Positions 1 to 8,036 of a stretch of 64,000 nucleotides of DNA are shown one piece after another. The notes under the pieces were generated by a model, which made no database searches, was not told where the DNA came from, and was given only the letters and a program-made list of their open reading frames with translations. Every line of letters starts with the position of its first letter. Position 1 is the stretch's first letter. The DNA comes from Escherichia coli (GTDB lineage: Bacteria; Pseudomonadota; Gammaproteobacteria; Enterobacterales; Enterobacteriaceae), in the NCBI RefSeq assembly GCF_003334305.1, contig NZ_QOWS01000002.1. One strand, written 5' to 3'. The position numbers and the translations under genes were made by a program.

Positions 1-433
1 AATGGCGACGAAGGTTACCACCCACACCCACGGCGGCACTTCCGGGAAGAGGGCGGAGAGATAGATTTTCGCCAACAAAACGTTGATCATCGGCAAAAAG
101 AGATAATCCAGCAGTGATGACCAGCCGACCATAAATCCGACGTGCGGGTTAATCGACTTTTGCGCGTAGGTATAGGCCGAACCGGCCTCCGGAAACTGGC
201 GAACCAGTTTGCCGTAGCTGATAGCGGTAAACAGCACGCCCGCCAGCGCTAGCAAATAGGACGCCGGAACGTGACCGTCGCTAATGCCTGACACAATGCC
301 AAAAGTATCGAACACAGTCATCGGCGTGAGATAGGCCAGACCCATCATTACCACCTGCCACAATTTCAGTGATTTTCGCAGACGGGTTTTGCCGGGTTGC
401 GCAGCAATATTCAGTGGTGAATTAATAGCCATA
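1..433 (-). CDS. puuP: putrescine importer PuuP, 5' portion only (gene runs off the window start)
   Basis: Reverse-strand ATG at 431-433 followed by [28 protein letters not shown]..., an amino-acid/polyamine permease N-terminus; lies directly downstream of puuA as in the puu cluster. Not in the ORF track because no stop lies in-window. Confidence 0.85.
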
Positions 434-734
434 ATTGCTGCCTCCCCTGCGTAATAAGGTTTGCGGTCGTGTCGACCTGAAATCAAACCTGTTTAGCAAG
501 GGAAGCAAAGGGGGCGGAGTCCAGTCAGTAGCAGGAGGGGCGCATACGCAGCCTCCCTCGCCATGCGGGGATTTAATCATCGGCATCATCTCATTTCCTC
601 GTCACAGTCTTAATCGTTAACGGAAGCCCGTTGCCGCCTGCGCTCCATAACGCGACATCCGGGAAATGTCTGGATTACCAGCAAATGTCAGGCCTGGCTC
701 CGCTCAGGCCGATGAAACACCCCCGCAAGGGGAA

Positions 735-2153
735 TTACGCGTTTTTCAACATCCACTCAATTTCTGTTTCTGTGATGAGGCGCTCAAACTGCAACAGCTC
801 ATCATTTTTACAGGCGTGATACACATGGCAAAACCGTTCGCCTAAATAGCGGCGCAGGTGATCATTCTCGATAAACTCACCCAGGGCATCGCTCTGGCGA
901 ATCGGGAAGGGTAAGCCTTCCTGTTCCAGCCCGTTGCCTTCGACTTCTTCCTGCAACGGCAGCTCGTTATCAAGGCCATGCAAAATACCGGCAAAAATCG
1001 CTGCCATCACCAGATATGGGTTGGCATCGGCACCCGCCACGCGATATTCCACGCGGTGATTATGACGGTCGCCGCACGGAATACGCAGGGCGACGGTGCG
1101 GTTGTTATGGCCCCACGACGCCTGCGTCGGCACATACATTCCCGGCTGGAAGCGGCGATACGAGTTCACGTTTGGTGCCAGCAACGCCATCGACGACGGC
1201 ATCAGGTCAATCATCCCGGCGAGCATCTTTTTCAGCAGCGGCGAATCTTCGCCTTCCGCGTCAGAAAGCACGTTCTCGCCACGGTTATTTTGCATACTGA
1301 TATGGATATGCATTCCGCTGCCCGCGTGCTCTTCATACGGCTTCGCCATAAAAGTGGCGTGCATCTTATGCTTTTCTGCCATCAGACGCACCAGGCGTTT
1401 TAGCGCCAGCGCATCATCGCAGGCTTCCAGCACGTTATCGGTATGGTAAAGGTTGATTTCAAACTGACCCGGCGAGGCTTCGGCGACCGCACCGTCGGCG
1501 GGAATTAACTGTAACTGCGCCAGTTCATCAATATCATTGAGCACATCGGCGAAGTGGTTGAGGTTATCAACGGAGTAAACCTGGCTTTGTGTATTGCGGT
1601 CATCGGTGCCGGGCGCGCAGGGCGGTTGCAGATACCCTTCAGCGTCGCGCTGACGATCCAGTAAATAGAACTCCAGCTCTACCGCTACAACCGGGAACAA
1701 TCCGCGCTGGCGTAGCTGCTGCCACAGGCGGTTAAGAACGTTCCGCGGCTCAACGTCAAAGGGAGCGCCATCTTCATCGACCATGGTCAGGAGCATCTGA
1801 CCGATAAACTCTGGATCGGCGGCAGAAGGGGTTAAGGAACCGAGAACAGGAACACAAGTACGATCCGGCTCGCCCATTTCCTGACCCAGACCCGCTTCTT
1901 CTACTACGTTGCCCAGAATATCCATTGCAAACACCGAGGCCGGGAAATAACACCCTTTCTCCAACTTCTTCAGGCTTGAAACAGGGATACGTTTTCCACG
2001 GAAGCAACCATTCAAATCAGTAAGTAAAACATCAACATATTGCGTATTCGGGTAGCGCTCCAGGTAGCGTTTCACTTCCTGCGTAAAGGCGCTACCCCGC
2101 CTCTCTTCTGACTGCTGAACAAAGTTCTCTACTTCAACGATATTGGTTTCCAT
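735..2153 (-). CDS. puuA: gamma-glutamylputrescine synthetase (glutamine synthetase family)
   Basis: Track ORF 735..2231; trimmed to the ATG at 2151-2153 (METNIVEVENF...) giving 472 aa, the length I recall for PuuA. Confidence 0.93.
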   Translation of the reverse strand: METNIVEVENFVQQSEERRGSAFTQEVKRYLERYPNTQYVDVLLTDLNGCFRGKRIPVSSLKKLEKGCYFPASVFAMDILGNVVEEAGLGQEMGEPDRTCVPVLGSLTPSAADPEFIGQMLLTMVDEDGAPFDVEPRNVLNRLWQQLRQRGLFPVVAVELEFYLLDRQRDAEGYLQPPCAPGTDDRNTQSQVYSVDNLNHFADVLNDIDELAQLQLIPADGAVAEASPGQFEINLYHTDNVLEACDDALALKRLVRLMAEKHKMHATFMAKPYEEHAGSGMHIHISMQNNRGENVLSDAEGEDSPLLKKMLAGMIDLMPSSMALLAPNVNSYRRFQPGMYVPTQASWGHNNRTVALRIPCGDRHNHRVEYRVAGADANPYLVMAAIFAGILHGLDNELPLQEEVEGNGLEQEGLPFPIRQSDALGEFIENDHLRRYLGERFCHVYHACKNDELLQFERLITETEIEWMLKNA

Positions 2154-2196
2154 GATTCTTCGCCTTTGGTTTGTTTTCCGCTCGTTATCAAAGCGT

Positions 2197-2307
2197 AAAA
2201 TATAATGACCACCATTCGAATCTGTATGCAAACTAAATGTTTGTCAAATGTTAAATTGAGTTTGCAAAAATGAAAACCCACTGCTAGATTGAAAAAATAT
2301 TGAACAT
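2197..2307. promoter_or_regulatory. puuA/puuD divergent control region with two candidate PuuR boxes
   Basis: AAAATATAATGACCA at 2197-2211 and AAAAATATTGAACAT at 2293-2307 in the 211-bp divergent intergenic region; they resemble the PuuR recognition motif as I recall it (AAAATATAATGAACA). Assignment is by similarity only. Confidence 0.35.
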
Positions 2308-2364
2308 AAAGGTCATTTAAACCGCAGTAATGGCGATAATTTAGTCCACTTTGTGAGATTGAGC

Positions 2365-3129
2365 ATGGAAAATATAATGAACAATCCGGTTATCGGTGTC
2401 GTAATGTGCAGGAACAGGCTTAAGGGTCATGCGACCCAGACTCTGCAAGAAAAGTACCTGAATGCCATCATCCACGCAGGCGGCTTGCCAATTGCGCTAC
2501 CACATGCGCTGGCGGAACCGTCATTACTTGAACAACTTTTGCCGAAACTCGATGGCATTTATCTTCCTGGTAGTCCCAGCAATGTGCAGCCGCACCTATA
2601 TGGTGAAAACGGCGATGAGCCTGACGCCGATCCCGGGCGTGATCTTCTGAGCATGGCGTTAATTAATGCCGCACTCGAAAGGCGCATCCCCATTTTCGCC
2701 ATCTGCCGGGGTTTACAAGAACTGGTGGTGGCAACCGGTGGTTCGTTGCATCGCAAGCTGTGCGAACAGCCTGAATTGCTGGAACATCGGGAAGATCCCG
2801 AACTGCCGGTGGAACAGCAATATGCACCGTCGCATGAAGTTCAGGTTGAAGAGGGGGGATTACTGTCTGCGTTGTTACCTGAATGTAGCAACTTTTGGGT
2901 AAACTCTCTACATGGACAAGGGGCGAAGGTCGTTAGCCCACGGTTGCGTGTTGAAGCTCGCTCGCCGGATGGCTTAGTTGAGGCGGTTAGCGTCATCAAT
3001 CATCCTTTTGCGCTGGGCGTACAGTGGCACCCGGAATGGAACAGTAGCGAGTACGCGCTTTCGCGTATATTGTTCGAGGGCTTTATCACCGCTTGTCAGC
3101 ACCATATCGCTGAAAAACAGCGACTCTGA
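2365..3129 (+). CDS. puuD: gamma-glutamyl-gamma-aminobutyrate hydrolase (class I glutamine amidotransferase-like)
   Basis: Track ORF 2353..3129; start placed at ATG 2365 (MENIMNNPVIGVV...) giving 254 aa. Confidence 0.92.
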   Translation: MENIMNNPVIGVVMCRNRLKGHATQTLQEKYLNAIIHAGGLPIALPHALAEPSLLEQLLPKLDGIYLPGSPSNVQPHLYGENGDEPDADPGRDLLSMALINAALERRIPIFAICRGLQELVVATGGSLHRKLCEQPELLEHREDPELPVEQQYAPSHEVQVEEGGLLSALLPECSNFWVNSLHGQGAKVVSPRLRVEARSPDGLVEAVSVINHPFALGVQWHPEWNSSEYALSRILFEGFITACQHHIAEKQRL

Positions 3130-3155
3130 CCACTACAGTTTAAGGAAATGCAAAT

Positions 3156-3713
3156 ATGAGTGATGAGGGACTGGCGCCAGGAAAACGCTTGTCGGAAATC
3201 CGCCAGCAGCAGGGGCTTTCACAACGTCGTGCCGCCGAACTCTCCGGGCTGACTCACAGTGCTATCAGTACGATAGAACAAGATAAAGTCAGCCCTGCCA
3301 TCAGTACGCTGCAAAAGCTGCTGAAGGTGTATGGTCTGTCACTCTCGGAATTCTTTTCCGAGCCGGAAAAACCTGATGAGCCGCAGGTCGTCATTAATCA
3401 GGACGACTTAATTGAGATGGGCAGTCAGGGTGTGTCAATGAAGCTGGTTCATAACGGTAACCCGAATCGCACGCTGGCGATGATCTTTGAAACGTACCAG
3501 CCGGGCACAACCACTGGGGAAAGAATTAAGCATCAGGGTGAGGAAATAGGCACTGTACTGGAAGGTGAAATTGTTCTGACCATTAATGGTCAGGATTACC
3601 ACCTCGTCGCGGGGCAAAGTTATGCCATTAATACCGGCATCCCGCACAGTTTCAGTAATACGTCGGCAGGTATTTGCCGAATTATCAGCGCCCATACGCC
3701 CACCACGTTTTAA
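3156..3713 (+). CDS. puuR: HTH-type repressor of the puu genes (XRE HTH plus cupin domain)
   Basis: 185-aa ORF; N-terminal HTH (LSQRRAAELSGLTHSAISTIEQ) and position between puuD and puuC. Confidence 0.92.
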   Translation: MSDEGLAPGKRLSEIRQQQGLSQRRAAELSGLTHSAISTIEQDKVSPAISTLQKLLKVYGLSLSEFFSEPEKPDEPQVVINQDDLIEMGSQGVSMKLVHNGNPNRTLAMIFETYQPGTTTGERIKHQGEEIGTVLEGEIVLTINGQDYHLVAGQSYAINTGIPHSFSNTSAGICRIISAHTPTTF

Positions 3714-3862
3714 TCTTTTTGTTCTGTAAGCCGGGTAAGCGCAATGCGCCCGGCAATCCATAAAGAATGTCGCCAGAAATAAACGGGCATACGGCCCGGG
3801 GATCTCTGCGCCCTGACGTTCACAAACTGCATATATCTGATAGACGTGAAACAGGAGTCATA

Positions 3863-5350
3863 ATGAATTTTCATCATCTGGCTTACTGGCAGGATAAAGC
3901 GTTAAGTCTCGCCATTGAAAACCGCTTATTTATTAACGGTGAATATACTGCTGCGGCGGAAAATGAAACCTTTGAAACCGTTGATCCGGTCACCCAGGCA
4001 CCGCTGGCGAAAATTGCCCGCGGCAAGAGCGTCGATATCGACCGTGCGGTGAGCGCAGCACGCGGCGTATTTGAACGCGGCGACTGGTCACTCTCTTCTC
4101 CGGCTAAACGTAAAGCGGTACTGAATAAACTCGCCGATTTAATGGAAGCCCACGCCGAAGAGCTGGCACTGCTGGAAACTCTCGACACCGGCAAACCGAT
4201 TCGTCACAGTCTGCGTGATGATATTCCCGGCGCGGCGCGCGCCATTCGCTGGTACGCCGAAGCGATCGACAAAGTGTATGGCGAAGTGGCGACCACCAGT
4301 AGCCATGAGCTGGCGATGATCGTGCGTGAACCGGTCGGCGTGATTGCCGCCATCGTGCCGTGGAACTTCCCGCTGTTGCTGACTTGCTGGAAACTCGGCC
4401 CGGCGCTGGCGGCGGGAAACAGCGTGATTCTAAAACCGTCTGAAAAATCACCGCTCAGTGCGATTCGTCTCGCGGGGCTGGCGAAAGAAGCAGGCTTGCC
4501 GGATGGTGTGTTGAACGTGGTGACGGGTTTTGGTCATGAAGCGGGGCAGGCGCTTTCGCGTCATAACGATATCGATGCCATCGCCTTTACCGGCTCCACG
4601 CGTACGGGTAAACAACTGCTGAAAGACGCGGGTGATAGCAACATGAAACGTGTCTGGCTGGAAGCGGGCGGCAAAAGCGCCAACATCGTTTTCGCCGATT
4701 GTCCGGATCTGCAAAAAGCGGCAAGCGCCACCGCCGCAGGCATCTTCTACAACCAGGGCCAGGTGTGCATCGCCGGAACGCGTTTGTTACTGGAAGAGAG
4801 CATTGCCGATGAATTCTTAGCCCTGTTAAAACAGCAGGCGCAAAACTGGCAGCCGGGTCATCCACTTGATCCCGCAACCACCATGGGCACCTTAATCGAC
4901 TGCGCCCACGCCGACTCGGTGCATAGCTTTATTCGTGAAGGCGAAAGCAAAGGGCAACTGCTGCTGGATGGCCGTAACGCCGAGCTGGCTGCCGCCATCG
5001 GCCCGACCATCTTTGTGGATGTAGACCCGAATGCGTCCTTAAGCCGCGAAGAGATTTTCGGCCCGGTGTTGGTGGTCACGCGTTTCACATCAGAAGATCA
5101 GGCGCTTCAGCTTGCTAACGACAGCCAGTACGGCCTCGGCGCGGCGGTATGGACGCGCGACCTCTCCCGCGCGCACCGCATGAGCCGTCGCCTGAAAGCC
5201 GGTTCCGTCTTCGTCAATAACTACAACGACGGCGATATGACCGTGCCGTTTGGCGGCTATAAGCAGAGCGGCAACGGTCGCGACAAATCCCTGCATGCCC
5301 TTGAAAAATTCACTGAACTGAAAACCATCTGGATAAGCCTGGAGGCCTGA
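3863..5350 (+). CDS. puuC: gamma-glutamyl-gamma-aminobutyraldehyde dehydrogenase (aldehyde dehydrogenase family)
   Basis: Track ORF 3767..5350 trimmed to ATG 3863 (MNFHHLAYWQDK...) giving 495 aa; aldehyde dehydrogenase motifs (FTGSTRTG, EAGGKS). Confidence 0.92.
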   Translation: MNFHHLAYWQDKALSLAIENRLFINGEYTAAAENETFETVDPVTQAPLAKIARGKSVDIDRAVSAARGVFERGDWSLSSPAKRKAVLNKLADLMEAHAEELALLETLDTGKPIRHSLRDDIPGAARAIRWYAEAIDKVYGEVATTSSHELAMIVREPVGVIAAIVPWNFPLLLTCWKLGPALAAGNSVILKPSEKSPLSAIRLAGLAKEAGLPDGVLNVVTGFGHEAGQALSRHNDIDAIAFTGSTRTGKQLLKDAGDSNMKRVWLEAGGKSANIVFADCPDLQKAASATAAGIFYNQGQVCIAGTRLLLEESIADEFLALLKQQAQNWQPGHPLDPATTMGTLIDCAHADSVHSFIREGESKGQLLLDGRNAELAAAIGPTIFVDVDPNASLSREEIFGPVLVVTRFTSEDQALQLANDSQYGLGAAVWTRDLSRAHRMSRRLKAGSVFVNNYNDGDMTVPFGGYKQSGNGRDKSLHALEKFTELKTIWISLEA

Positions 5351-5351
5351 A

Positions 5352-6632
5352 ATGACCGAACATACCAGCAGTTATTACGCCGCCAGTGCGAATAAATACG
5401 CGCCATTCGACACGCTGAATGAGTCAATCACCTGCGACGTTTGCGTGGTTGGCGGCGGCTATACCGGGCTCTCCTCCGCGCTGCATCTGGCGGAAGCGGG
5501 CTTTGACGTAGTGGTTCTCGAAGCCTCACGCATCGGCTTTGGCGCAAGCGGGCGCAATGGCGGGCAGCTTGTGAACTCCTACAGCCGCGACATCGACGTG
5601 ATCGAAAAAAGCTACGGCATGGACACCGCCCGTATGCTCGGCAGCATGATGTTCGAAGGTGGTGAGATCATCCGCGAACGTATCAAACGTTATCAGATTG
5701 ACTGCGACTACCGCCCCGGCGGCCTGTTTGTGGCGATGAATGATAAACAGCTCGCCACACTTGAAGAGCAGAAAGAGAACTGGGAACGCTACGGCAATAA
5801 ACAGCTGGAATTGCTGGACGCCAACGCCATTCGCCGTGAAGTAGCCAGCGATCGCTATACCGGTGCGCTGCTGGATCACAGCGGTGGGCATATTCATCCG
5901 CTAAACCTCGCCATTGGCGAAGCGGACGCCATCCGCCTCAACGGCGGGCGCGTGTATGAACTTTCTGCCGTGACGCAGATCCAGCACACCACGCCAGCCG
6001 TTGTGCGAACTGCCAAAGGTCAGGTGACGGCGAAGTATGTGATTGTCGCCGGGAATGCGTATCTGGGCGATAAAGTAGAGCCGGAACTGGCGAAACGCAG
6101 CATGCCGTGCGGCACGCAGGTGATCACCACCGAACGGCTGTCGGAAGATTTAGCCCGTTCGCTGATCCCGAAAAACTACTGTGTGGAAGACTGTAACTAT
6201 CTGCTTGATTACTACCGTCTTACCGCCGACAACCGCCTGCTGTACGGCGGCGGCGTGGTCTACGGCGCGCGCGACCCGGATGACGTTGAGCGCCTTGTGG
6301 TGCCGAAACTGCTGAAAACCTTCCCGCAGCTGAAGGGCGTGAAAATTGATTACCGCTGGACGGGCAACTTCCTGCTGACCTTGTCGCGCATGCCGCAGTT
6401 CGGTCGCCTTGATACCAACATCTATTACATGCAGGGCTACAGCGGCCACGGCGTCACCTGTACCCATCTTGCCGGGCGTCTGATTGCCGAACTGCTGCGC
6501 GGCGACGCCGAACGTTTCGATGCCTTCGCCAATCTGCCGCATTACCCGTTCCCCGGCGGGCGCACGCTGCGCGTGCCATTTACCGCGATGGGCGCGGCTT
6601 ATTACAGCCTGCGCGATCGTCTGGGCGTTTAA
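5352..6632 (+). CDS. puuB: gamma-glutamylputrescine oxidase (FAD-dependent)
   Basis: 426-aa ORF with N-terminal FAD-binding GGGYTG motif; start 1 nt after the puuC stop. Confidence 0.92.
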   Translation: MTEHTSSYYAASANKYAPFDTLNESITCDVCVVGGGYTGLSSALHLAEAGFDVVVLEASRIGFGASGRNGGQLVNSYSRDIDVIEKSYGMDTARMLGSMMFEGGEIIRERIKRYQIDCDYRPGGLFVAMNDKQLATLEEQKENWERYGNKQLELLDANAIRREVASDRYTGALLDHSGGHIHPLNLAIGEADAIRLNGGRVYELSAVTQIQHTTPAVVRTAKGQVTAKYVIVAGNAYLGDKVEPELAKRSMPCGTQVITTERLSEDLARSLIPKNYCVEDCNYLLDYYRLTADNRLLYGGGVVYGARDPDDVERLVVPKLLKTFPQLKGVKIDYRWTGNFLLTLSRMPQFGRLDTNIYYMQGYSGHGVTCTHLAGRLIAELLRGDAERFDAFANLPHYPFPGGRTLRVPFTAMGAAYYSLRDRLGV

Positions 6633-6669
6633 TTTCCGATTAACAGTGAAGAGTCAAAAGGTGTGAAAC

Positions 6670-7935
6670 ATGAGCAACAATGAATTCCATCAGCGTCGTC
6701 TTTCTGCTACCCCACGCGGGGTTGGCGTGATGTGTAACTTCTTCGCCCAGTCGGCAGAAAACGCTACGCTGAAGGACGTAGAGGGCAACGAATACATCGA
6801 TTTCGCCGCAGGCATTGCGGTGCTGAATACCGGGCATCGCCACCCTGATCTGGTCGCGGCGGTGGAGCAGCAATTGCAACAGTTTACCCACACGGCGTAT
6901 CAGATTGTGCCGTACGAAAGCTACGTCACGCTGGCGGAGAAAATTAACGCCCTTGCCCCAGTGAGCGGGCAGGCTAAAACCGCATTCTTCACTACCGGTG
7001 CGGAAGCGGTGGAAAACGCGGTGAAAATTGCTCGCGCCCATACCGGACGACCTGGCGTGATTGCGTTTAGCGGTGGCTTCCACGGTCGTACATATATGAC
7101 CATGGCGCTGACCGGAAAAGTTGCGCCGTACAAAATCGGCTTCGGCCCGTTCCCTGGTTCGGTGTATCACGTACCTTATCCGTCAGATTTACACGGCATT
7201 TCAACACAGGACTCCCTCGACGCCATCGAACGCTTGTTTAAATCAGACATCGAAGCGAAGCAGGTCGCGGCCATTATTTTCGAACCGGTGCAGGGCGAGG
7301 GCGGTTTCAACGTTGCGCCAAAAGAGCTGGTTGCCGCCATTCGCCGCCTGTGCGACGAGCACGGTATTGTGATGATTGCCGATGAAGTGCAAAGCGGCTT
7401 TGCGCGTACCGGTAAACTGTTTGCCATGGATCATTACGCCGATAAGCCGGACTTAAAGACGATGGCGAAAAGCCTCGCGGGCGGGATGCCGCTTTCGGGC
7501 GTGGTCGGTAACGCGAATATTATGGACGCGCCCGCGCCGGGCGGGTTGGGTGGCACCTACGCCGGGAACCCGCTGGCGGTGGCTGCCGCGCACGCGGTGC
7601 TCAATATTATCGACAAAGAATCACTCTGCGAACGCGCGAATCAACTGGGCCAGCGTCTCAAAAACACGTTGATTGATGCCAAAGAAAGCGTTCCGGCCAT
7701 TGCTGCGGTACGCGGCCTGGGGTCGATGATTGCGGCAGAGTTTAACGATCCGCAAACGGGCGAGCCGTCAGCGGCGATTGCACAGAAAATCCAGCAACGC
7801 GCGCTGGCGCAGGGGCTGCTCCTGCTGACCTGTGGCGCATACGGCAACGTGATTCGCTTCCTGTATCCGCTGACCATACCGGATGCGCAATTCGATGCGG
7901 CAATGAAAATTTTGCAGGATGCGCTGAGCGATTAA
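6670..7935 (+). CDS. puuE: 4-aminobutyrate aminotransferase (class III PLP aminotransferase)
   Basis: 421-aa ORF; class III aminotransferase sequence; last gene of the puu cluster. Confidence 0.92.
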   Translation: MSNNEFHQRRLSATPRGVGVMCNFFAQSAENATLKDVEGNEYIDFAAGIAVLNTGHRHPDLVAAVEQQLQQFTHTAYQIVPYESYVTLAEKINALAPVSGQAKTAFFTTGAEAVENAVKIARAHTGRPGVIAFSGGFHGRTYMTMALTGKVAPYKIGFGPFPGSVYHVPYPSDLHGISTQDSLDAIERLFKSDIEAKQVAAIIFEPVQGEGGFNVAPKELVAAIRRLCDEHGIVMIADEVQSGFARTGKLFAMDHYADKPDLKTMAKSLAGGMPLSGVVGNANIMDAPAPGGLGGTYAGNPLAVAAAHAVLNIIDKESLCERANQLGQRLKNTLIDAKESVPAIAAVRGLGSMIAAEFNDPQTGEPSAAIAQKIQQRALAQGLLLLTCGAYGNVIRFLYPLTIPDAQFDAAMKILQDALSD

Positions 7936-7953
7936 TAGCCCAACGCAATAATG

Positions 7954-8036
7954 TCTGATGCGCTGCGCTTATCAGGCCTGCAAACGACGTATTGATTATG
8001 TATGCCGAATAAAGCATTCACGCCGCATCCGGCAAG
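7954..8036. repeat. REP-type extragenic palindromes (pair) between convergent puuE and pspF
   Basis: GATGCGCTGCGCTTATCAGGCCTG and CACGCCGCATCCGGCA units characteristic of enterobacterial REP/BIME elements; track ORF 7958..8155 over this region is judged non-coding. Confidence 0.5.

Follow-up and report, generated by a model that had tools for sequence, protein, structure and literature searches.

The spacer between the divergent genes puuA and puuD of Escherichia coli carries two sequence boxes which are, very probably, two of the operators in an array of three to four PuuR operators laid over back-to-back puuA and puuD promoters. A sequence-only reading of the 64,000 nt stretch of DNA considered here (the window) had pointed to these boxes as PuuR-like, a view that is upheld by their location in the puu cluster, by the presence of an intact puuR, by their identity to the boxes of K-12 and by their conservation in 41 loci. 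The PuuR array at puuA/puuD is already known and published, and as the boxes are copies of the already published PuuR binding sequence the finding is correct but ordinary.

The puu locus

The E. coli puu cluster occupies positions 1-8000 of the window and matches E. coli chromosomes at up to 100% identity. Genes were assigned from the RefSeq annotation of an identical E. coli record together with tblastn, and their order in the first 8 kb is puuP (cut by the window edge), ymjE, puuA, puuD, puuR, puuC, puuB and puuE. The glutamate-putrescine ligase gene puuA (735-2153, minus strand; RefSeq annotation, tblastn) heads the leftward puuA-puuP unit, and puuD (2365-3129, plus strand; RefSeq annotation, tblastn) heads the rightward puuDRCBE unit, listed by Cho 2014 as the transcription unit puuD;puuR;puuC;puuB;puuE. 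The spacer between these two genes, 211 bp at 2154-2364, contains both boxes.

The repressor gene puuR (3156-3713, plus strand), assigned by NCBIfam and Pfam to a protein with an XRE-type helix-turn-helix and a cupin domain, is intact and lies 0.8 kb from the boxes. Its product scores 385.5 bits against the NCBIfam equivalog NF007408, for which the cut-off is 211, it has the Pfam domains HTH_3 and Cupin_2, and by tblastn it is 100% identical to K-12 PuuR. The control region is likewise that of K-12, with one base in 277 differing from MG1655 over 2124-2400 (C at 2322, where K-12 has G), outside every box and other feature; window position x corresponds to x+1358755 in NC_000913.3 and to x+1356779 in U00096.2. 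At 95% identity or more the spacer is found in 4372 of 5426 complete E. coli genomes, and in the complete genomes without it the whole puu cluster is missing. About 1,050 complete genomes, for example that of an O127:H6 strain, match window positions 1-8000 only in a 125-nt piece at 7873-8000.

The start-site lists of Kim 2012 and Cho 2014 also place a puuP start at 578 on the minus strand, within ymjE and 146 nt upstream of puuP, and two starts assigned to puuR at 2613 and 2912 on the plus strand, both within puuD. The start at 578 and those at 2613 and 2912 would allow expression of puuP and puuR that is independent of PuuR.

A repeated operator sequence

Both boxes are present on the plus strand as they had been written down, box 1 (AAAATATAATGACCA) at 2197-2211 and box 2 (AAAAATATTGAACAT) at 2293-2307. 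A template-free repeat search of 2100-2420 recovers a single direct-repeat family made up of three 15-mers, all on the plus strand: copy 1 is box 1 itself, with one mismatch to AAAATATAATGAACA; copy 2 is AAAAAATATTGAACA at 2292-2306, with two mismatches; and copy 3, missed by the sequence-only reading, is an exact AAAATATAATGAACA at 2369-2383, inside puuD codons 2-7. Since the repeat family puts copy 2 at 2292-2306, box 2 had been drawn one base out of register. The proposal of two boxes in the divergent puuA/puuD control region was therefore right as to the location but not as to the number, since three boxes are clear and a fourth is probable. If up to two mismatches are allowed, AAAATATAATGAACA has three matches in 64 kb against an expectation of 0.17, all of them within 187 bp and on one strand, and three matches were reached in none of 100 shuffles; the boxes are more than chance. 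The 15-mer AAAATATAATGAACA is presumably the 15-bp PuuR consensus of Nemoto et al. 2012, to which the third copy at 2369-2383 would be identical. A full-text literature search for this 15-mer returned no match.

The same sequences were followed through 41 Enterobacterales loci that share the divergent puuA, puuD-puuR layout, which were taken from a PuuD scan with one genome per species and include Escherichia, Klebsiella, Raoultella, Citrobacter, Enterobacter, Pluralibacter, Cedecea, Buttiauxella, Yokenella, Franconibacter, Hafnia, Erwinia and Serratia. In all of these orthologous loci, which reach from Escherichia as far as Serratia, Hafnia and Erwinia, the boxes keep their place and their sequence. 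When 23 of the 41 spacers are aligned, the three boxes stand out as conserved blocks, together with two more blocks, a central one at 2226-2268 and another at 2330-2349. Over the 41 loci the distances between blocks are near-invariant, at 38, 44, 14, 39-40 and 28-29 bp, and the length of the spacer varies only in the puuA leader, which runs to 42-77 nt from the core of the first operator to the puuA ATG. A position weight matrix (PWM) built from the non-Escherichia copies of the boxes only gives the E. coli boxes its three highest scores in the 64-kb window (26.5, 23.8 and 19.8 bits), the top score in shuffles having a mean of 14.4 and a maximum of 21.4 bits.

We describe the sites as 20-bp operators on the plus strand, the borders of which are predicted from the sequence. 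O1, at 2193-2212, holds box 1 and is the third best match in 64 kb (19.8 bits), with ATATAAT and CAC invariant in the 23 aligned species. O2, at 2288-2307, holds box 2 in its register of 2292-2306 and is the second best match (23.8 bits), its core AAATATTGAAC being kept in the 23 aligned species. O4, at 2365-2384, is the best match (26.5 bits) and takes in the puuD start codon and codons 2-7, so that it holds the exact AAAATATAATGAACA at 2369-2383; in the alignment of 23 spacers this third box keeps ATGG..AATATA.T..ACA. The fourth codon of puuD, for isoleucine, is the rare ATA in every one of the 41 loci, a codon that makes up 11% of the isoleucine codons elsewhere in puuD, and the operator appears to dictate codon choice here, and perhaps the N-terminal residues too.

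The conserved block at 2330-2349, ATGGCGATAATTTAGTCCAC, lies in the puuD leader and is a candidate operator, O3, with no strand assigned. When it was scored with a matrix built without this block it ranked fourth among the matches in 21 of 23 species, for the most part on the minus strand and with 9-12.7 bits, scores that are reached by 5% of shuffles or fewer in most genera. In E. coli it scores only 5 bits, which 16% of shuffles reach and which is not significant. From this pattern of conservation 2330-2349 is a probable fourth PuuR site, one that would be weak in E. coli.

It could be argued that the boxes are nothing but generic AT-rich promoter sequence, such as UP elements or sites for IHF, Fis or H-NS, as they are indeed AT-rich and do lie within a promoter region. 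This is barely credible, given that the conserved pattern has specific G and C positions (TGG..., ...G.(A/C)CA) which are repeated in register, that one copy of the box, sitting within a reading frame, holds a rare codon in place in 41 of 41 loci, and that the matrix finds nothing comparable elsewhere in the 64 kb. Nor is there anything comparable upstream of puuP/ymjE, puuC or puuE, where the best scores of the PuuR-site matrix are below 0 bits, and between 400 and 760 no sequence comes within 7 mismatches of a 20-bp palindromic PuuR consensus; a separate PuuR site at puuP is without sequence support in this window.

Two departures from the common layout were seen among the 41 loci. In Serratia and Hafnia (loci L028-L032, L034, L036, L037, L040 and L042) the puuD -35 region is overlain by an extra operator-like sequence, GTTTGAATATTGTCCAC, which lies some 17 bp upstream of the extended -10 of puuD and scores 10-12.7 bits in Serratia oryzae and S. 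rubidaea and 2.4 in Hafnia; judged by its sequence it would be a fifth site with no counterpart in E. coli. Buttiauxella sp. A111 (L015) has a 10-bp insertion directly after O2 that duplicates ATATTGA(A/G)C and sets O2 and O3 one helical turn further apart; this is the sole sizeable indel in an otherwise rigid O1-O4 module.

The puuD promoter and the TATAAT hexamer

Only one start is mapped on the plus strand of the spacer. Cho 2014 and Table S1 of Kim 2012 list it at 1359076 (U00096.2), window position 2297, at the head of the puuD;puuR;puuC;puuB;puuE unit; it lies 68 nt upstream of the puuD ATG and is supported by 5 reads only. Seven bases upstream of this start is an extended -10, TGcTAGATT, at 2282-2290 on the plus strand, and the extended -10 region, TGCTAGATT, is identical in 37 of 41 loci. 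A -35 hexamer, TTGCAA, lies 17 bp further upstream at 2262-2267 (plus strand), in a position that fits the start at 2297, and is TTGCAA or TTGAAT in 34 of 41 loci. With the start at 2297, box 2 extends from -5 to +10 of the puuD promoter and the 20-bp O2 from -9 to +11; O3 would then lie at +34 to +53 and O4 at +69 to +88.

Several other candidates in this part of the spacer were set aside. The sole match of a promoter scan, TTGTGA-16-TATAAT at 2351-2378, has a -35 that is not kept outside Escherichia and is probably not a real promoter; it runs across the puuD start codon and is covered by O4. A sigma-54 promoter in 2331-2348 (TGGC...) was rejected because, on reading by eye, the GC of the -12 is missing, and as an RNA element in the spacer or leaders Rfam offers only a sub-threshold chance match of 17.5 bits against a gathering score of 39.

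Box 1 had been said to overlap a perfect TATAAT hexamer, and such a hexamer is present at 2201-2206 on the plus strand, but the role of promoter hexamer that had been given to it is unsupported. It is on the plus strand when puuA is on the minus, it lies 84 nt upstream of the place that a start at 2297 requires, it has no conserved -35 partner, and there is no start near 2213 among the mapped puuD starts. The start-site data sets come from repressed or low-expression conditions, so the absence of a start near 2213 is not in itself proof. As a component of the operator consensus, TATAAT turns up again in box 3, within the puuD reading frame, and the hexamer at 2201-2206 is best read as operator sequence and is probably not a promoter element.

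There is a slim chance that this hexamer, perfect as it is and on the strand that codes for puuD, forms the -10 of a distal second puuD promoter with a start at about 2213 which PuuR would occlude. Such a promoter is at odds with the one mapped puuD start, which is at 2297, and it would have to draw on 2154-2196, the sequence upstream of TATAAT, where the spacer is least conserved and where there is neither a -35 nor a TG motif; the promoter scan did not report the TATAAT at 2201-2206 either.

The puuA promoter

The start of puuA is not given in the lists of Kim 2012 or Cho 2014, which have the puuD start only; Park 2013 enters 'no TSS', and no puuA start is listed in the supplements of Ettwiller 2016, which are possibly incomplete. 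Conservation points to a predicted -35, TTGACA, at 2242-2247 and a predicted -10, CAGATT, at 2219-2224, both on the minus strand. Of the 41 loci 29 have TTGACA as the -35 and the others have TTGnnA, and the -10 fits nAnnnT in 40 of 40 scorable loci at exactly 17 bp from the -35. The puuA promoter is thus probably this pair, with a start near 2212, which would put box 1 at +2 to +16 and O1 at +1 to +20.

This arrangement is favoured over one in which the occlusion idea of the sequence-only reading could work, with the AT core of box 1 serving as the puuA -10, a minus-strand TATATT at 2204-2199. PuuR would sit directly on this TATATT, and the start would be at about 2192. The latter is rather unlikely, though it has points in its favour: TATATT is found in 39 of 41 orthologous loci, and a start at about 2192 would give puuA a plausible 39-nt leader. 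However, conservation of TATATT is inseparable from operator conservation, the stretch 16-18 bp upstream of it has 19 different hexamers and no conserved -35-like one, and the competing TTGACA/TTGnnA and nAnnnT pair with its invariant 17-bp spacing stands 20 bp further upstream. The TATAAT of the sequence-only reading, being on the plus strand, points away from puuA. With the TTGACA/CAGATT pair as the preferred puuA promoter, both promoters have their -35 hexamers within the central conserved block, which is the most conserved block of the spacer and corresponds to the ArcA site of Park 2013 (1359005-1359047 in U00096.2, window 2226-2268, plus strand, four direct repeats). In that work ArcA represses puuA 15.3-fold and puuDR 10.6-fold.

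Repression by PuuR

Repression by promoter occlusion, which had been put forward on the strength of the TATAAT hexamer, is the likely mechanism, but for a different reason, namely that box 2 is on the puuD start and box 1 is at or next to the predicted puuA start. At low putrescine PuuR, by means of its XRE helix-turn-helix and with the cupin domain as sensor, would occupy the operators, of which O2 lies across the puuD start and O1 at or directly beside the putative puuA start. As O1 and O2 are on or beside the starts, RNA polymerase would be excluded from or trapped at both promoters, PuuR blocking its binding, its escape or the formation of the open complex. Auxiliary repression may be added by O3, in the puuD leader, and O4, at the puuD start codon, through cooperativity or as a roadblock. 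Putrescine acting on the cupin domain would lower the affinity for DNA and release both operons, and because puuR is in the puuD operon, under the same operators, it would be released too and the circuit would be negatively autoregulated. Phosphorylated ArcA, bound between O1 and O2 over both -35 hexamers, would add anaerobic repression.

Binding and protection by PuuR in the K-12 puuA-puuD spacer, and its release by putrescine, were reportedly shown by Nemoto et al. 2012 with footprints and primer extension.

Four PuuR DNA-binding motifs in the puuA/puuD spacer, from which putrescine releases PuuR, are described in PMC9951944, and this release is restated in PMC7901475; the PhoB paper mentions puu genes only for expression changes. 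The primers of PMC9951944 map to window positions 2154-2278, 2154-2389, 2154-2402 and 2221-2364, and the 'full-length' constructs were deliberately lengthened into puuD to take in a third box, which is O4. In a Corynebacterium glutamicum host PuuR repressed the 2154-2402 puuD fusion, with O1 to O4, 36-fold, and the 2221-2364 fusion, which has O2 and O3 only and is without O1 and O4, 6.9-fold (PMC9951944). The difference is consistent with auxiliary operators adding to repression; the constructs also differ in the translation start region.

Symmetry and architecture of the array

A 20-bp palindromic PuuR consensus was reportedly given by Terui et al. 2014, and a scan with such a consensus selects exactly the four blocks of the spacer. 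When all sites are pooled into a 26-column matrix and this is compared with its reverse complement, the correlation is r = 0.75 without a shift and no more than 0.35 at other shifts; the individual sites are strongly asymmetric. Scored in the reverse orientation O1 reaches 17.3 bits and O4 15.9 bits. A PuuR dimer may sit on a 20-bp dyad. The pooled symmetry agrees with the palindromes bound by other XRE-cupin repressors and conflicts with PMC12645834, which denies that the PuuR site is a palindrome and sees no evidence that the protein is dimeric.

The centres of O1 and O2 are 95 bp apart and those of O2 and O3 42 bp apart, with O4 35 bp beyond O3 and out of phase. As 95 and 42 bp are about 9 and 4 turns, O1, O2 and O3 lie on the same helix face. 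This phasing is compatible with cooperative binding; promoter geometry also constrains the distances.

Taken together these observations allow a wider proposal, which we put forward tentatively and as one that, taken as a whole, has somewhat less than an even chance of holding. Instead of the asymmetric 15-mer usually cited, each operator would be an imperfect dyad of 20 bp (about aTGG..AATATATT..CCAt) to which a dimer binds; the operators would form a rigid module of about 190 bp with four sites, or five in Serratia and Hafnia, of which O1 to O3 share one face; and the operator within puuD codons 1-7 would dictate codon choice.

Comparison with known systems

The closest known system is the set of PuuR sites in K-12, which has the same species, locus and repressor and from which nothing of substance differs here; the only differences are that box 2 had been placed one base out of register and that two of the sites had been listed. 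Further away are the Pseudomonas repressors PauR, PsdR and ErfA (Trouillon et al. 2021, PMC7901475), which combine HTH_3 and Cupin_2 as PuuR does. The Pseudomonas XRE-cupin proteins are local repressors of an adjacent metabolic operon, are released by a metabolite of the pathway and bind palindromic sites as dimers (PMC7901475). The pooled PuuR sites also show dyad symmetry, each single site being strongly asymmetric, but the recognition sequence of PuuR differs, as does its array, with three to five sites over about 190 bp, one of them in the first codons of a gene.

The lac O1/O2/O3 and gal OE/OI operators are an analogy only, in that there too a primary operator at the start is joined by downstream auxiliaries, one of them in coding sequence. 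As in lac and gal, repression by PuuR is stronger with the auxiliary sites present, by the two fold values given above. Unlike those systems, PuuR belongs to an unrelated protein family and looping or cooperativity is only putative for it.

What the array means

PuuR binding to the puuA/puuD spacer was reportedly published in 2012 and is said to have been entered in regulatory databases, and because of that publication the boxes carry little weight as a discovery. The present re-analysis is a check and a small refinement, from which it can be seen that real operators were recognisable to a reader without tools. The promoter assignment is corrected, the TATAAT being operator sequence, the puuD extended -10 lying at 2282-2290 and the puuA promoter probably being TTGACA/CAGATT. 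Comparative evidence is added that the operator array, including the site embedded in puuD, is kept across the Enterobacterales, and this conservation is relevant to those who build putrescine biosensors from the puuA/puuD region. If the dyad proposal were true, the complex that exerts repression would be looped or cooperative and would enclose the ArcA site as well.
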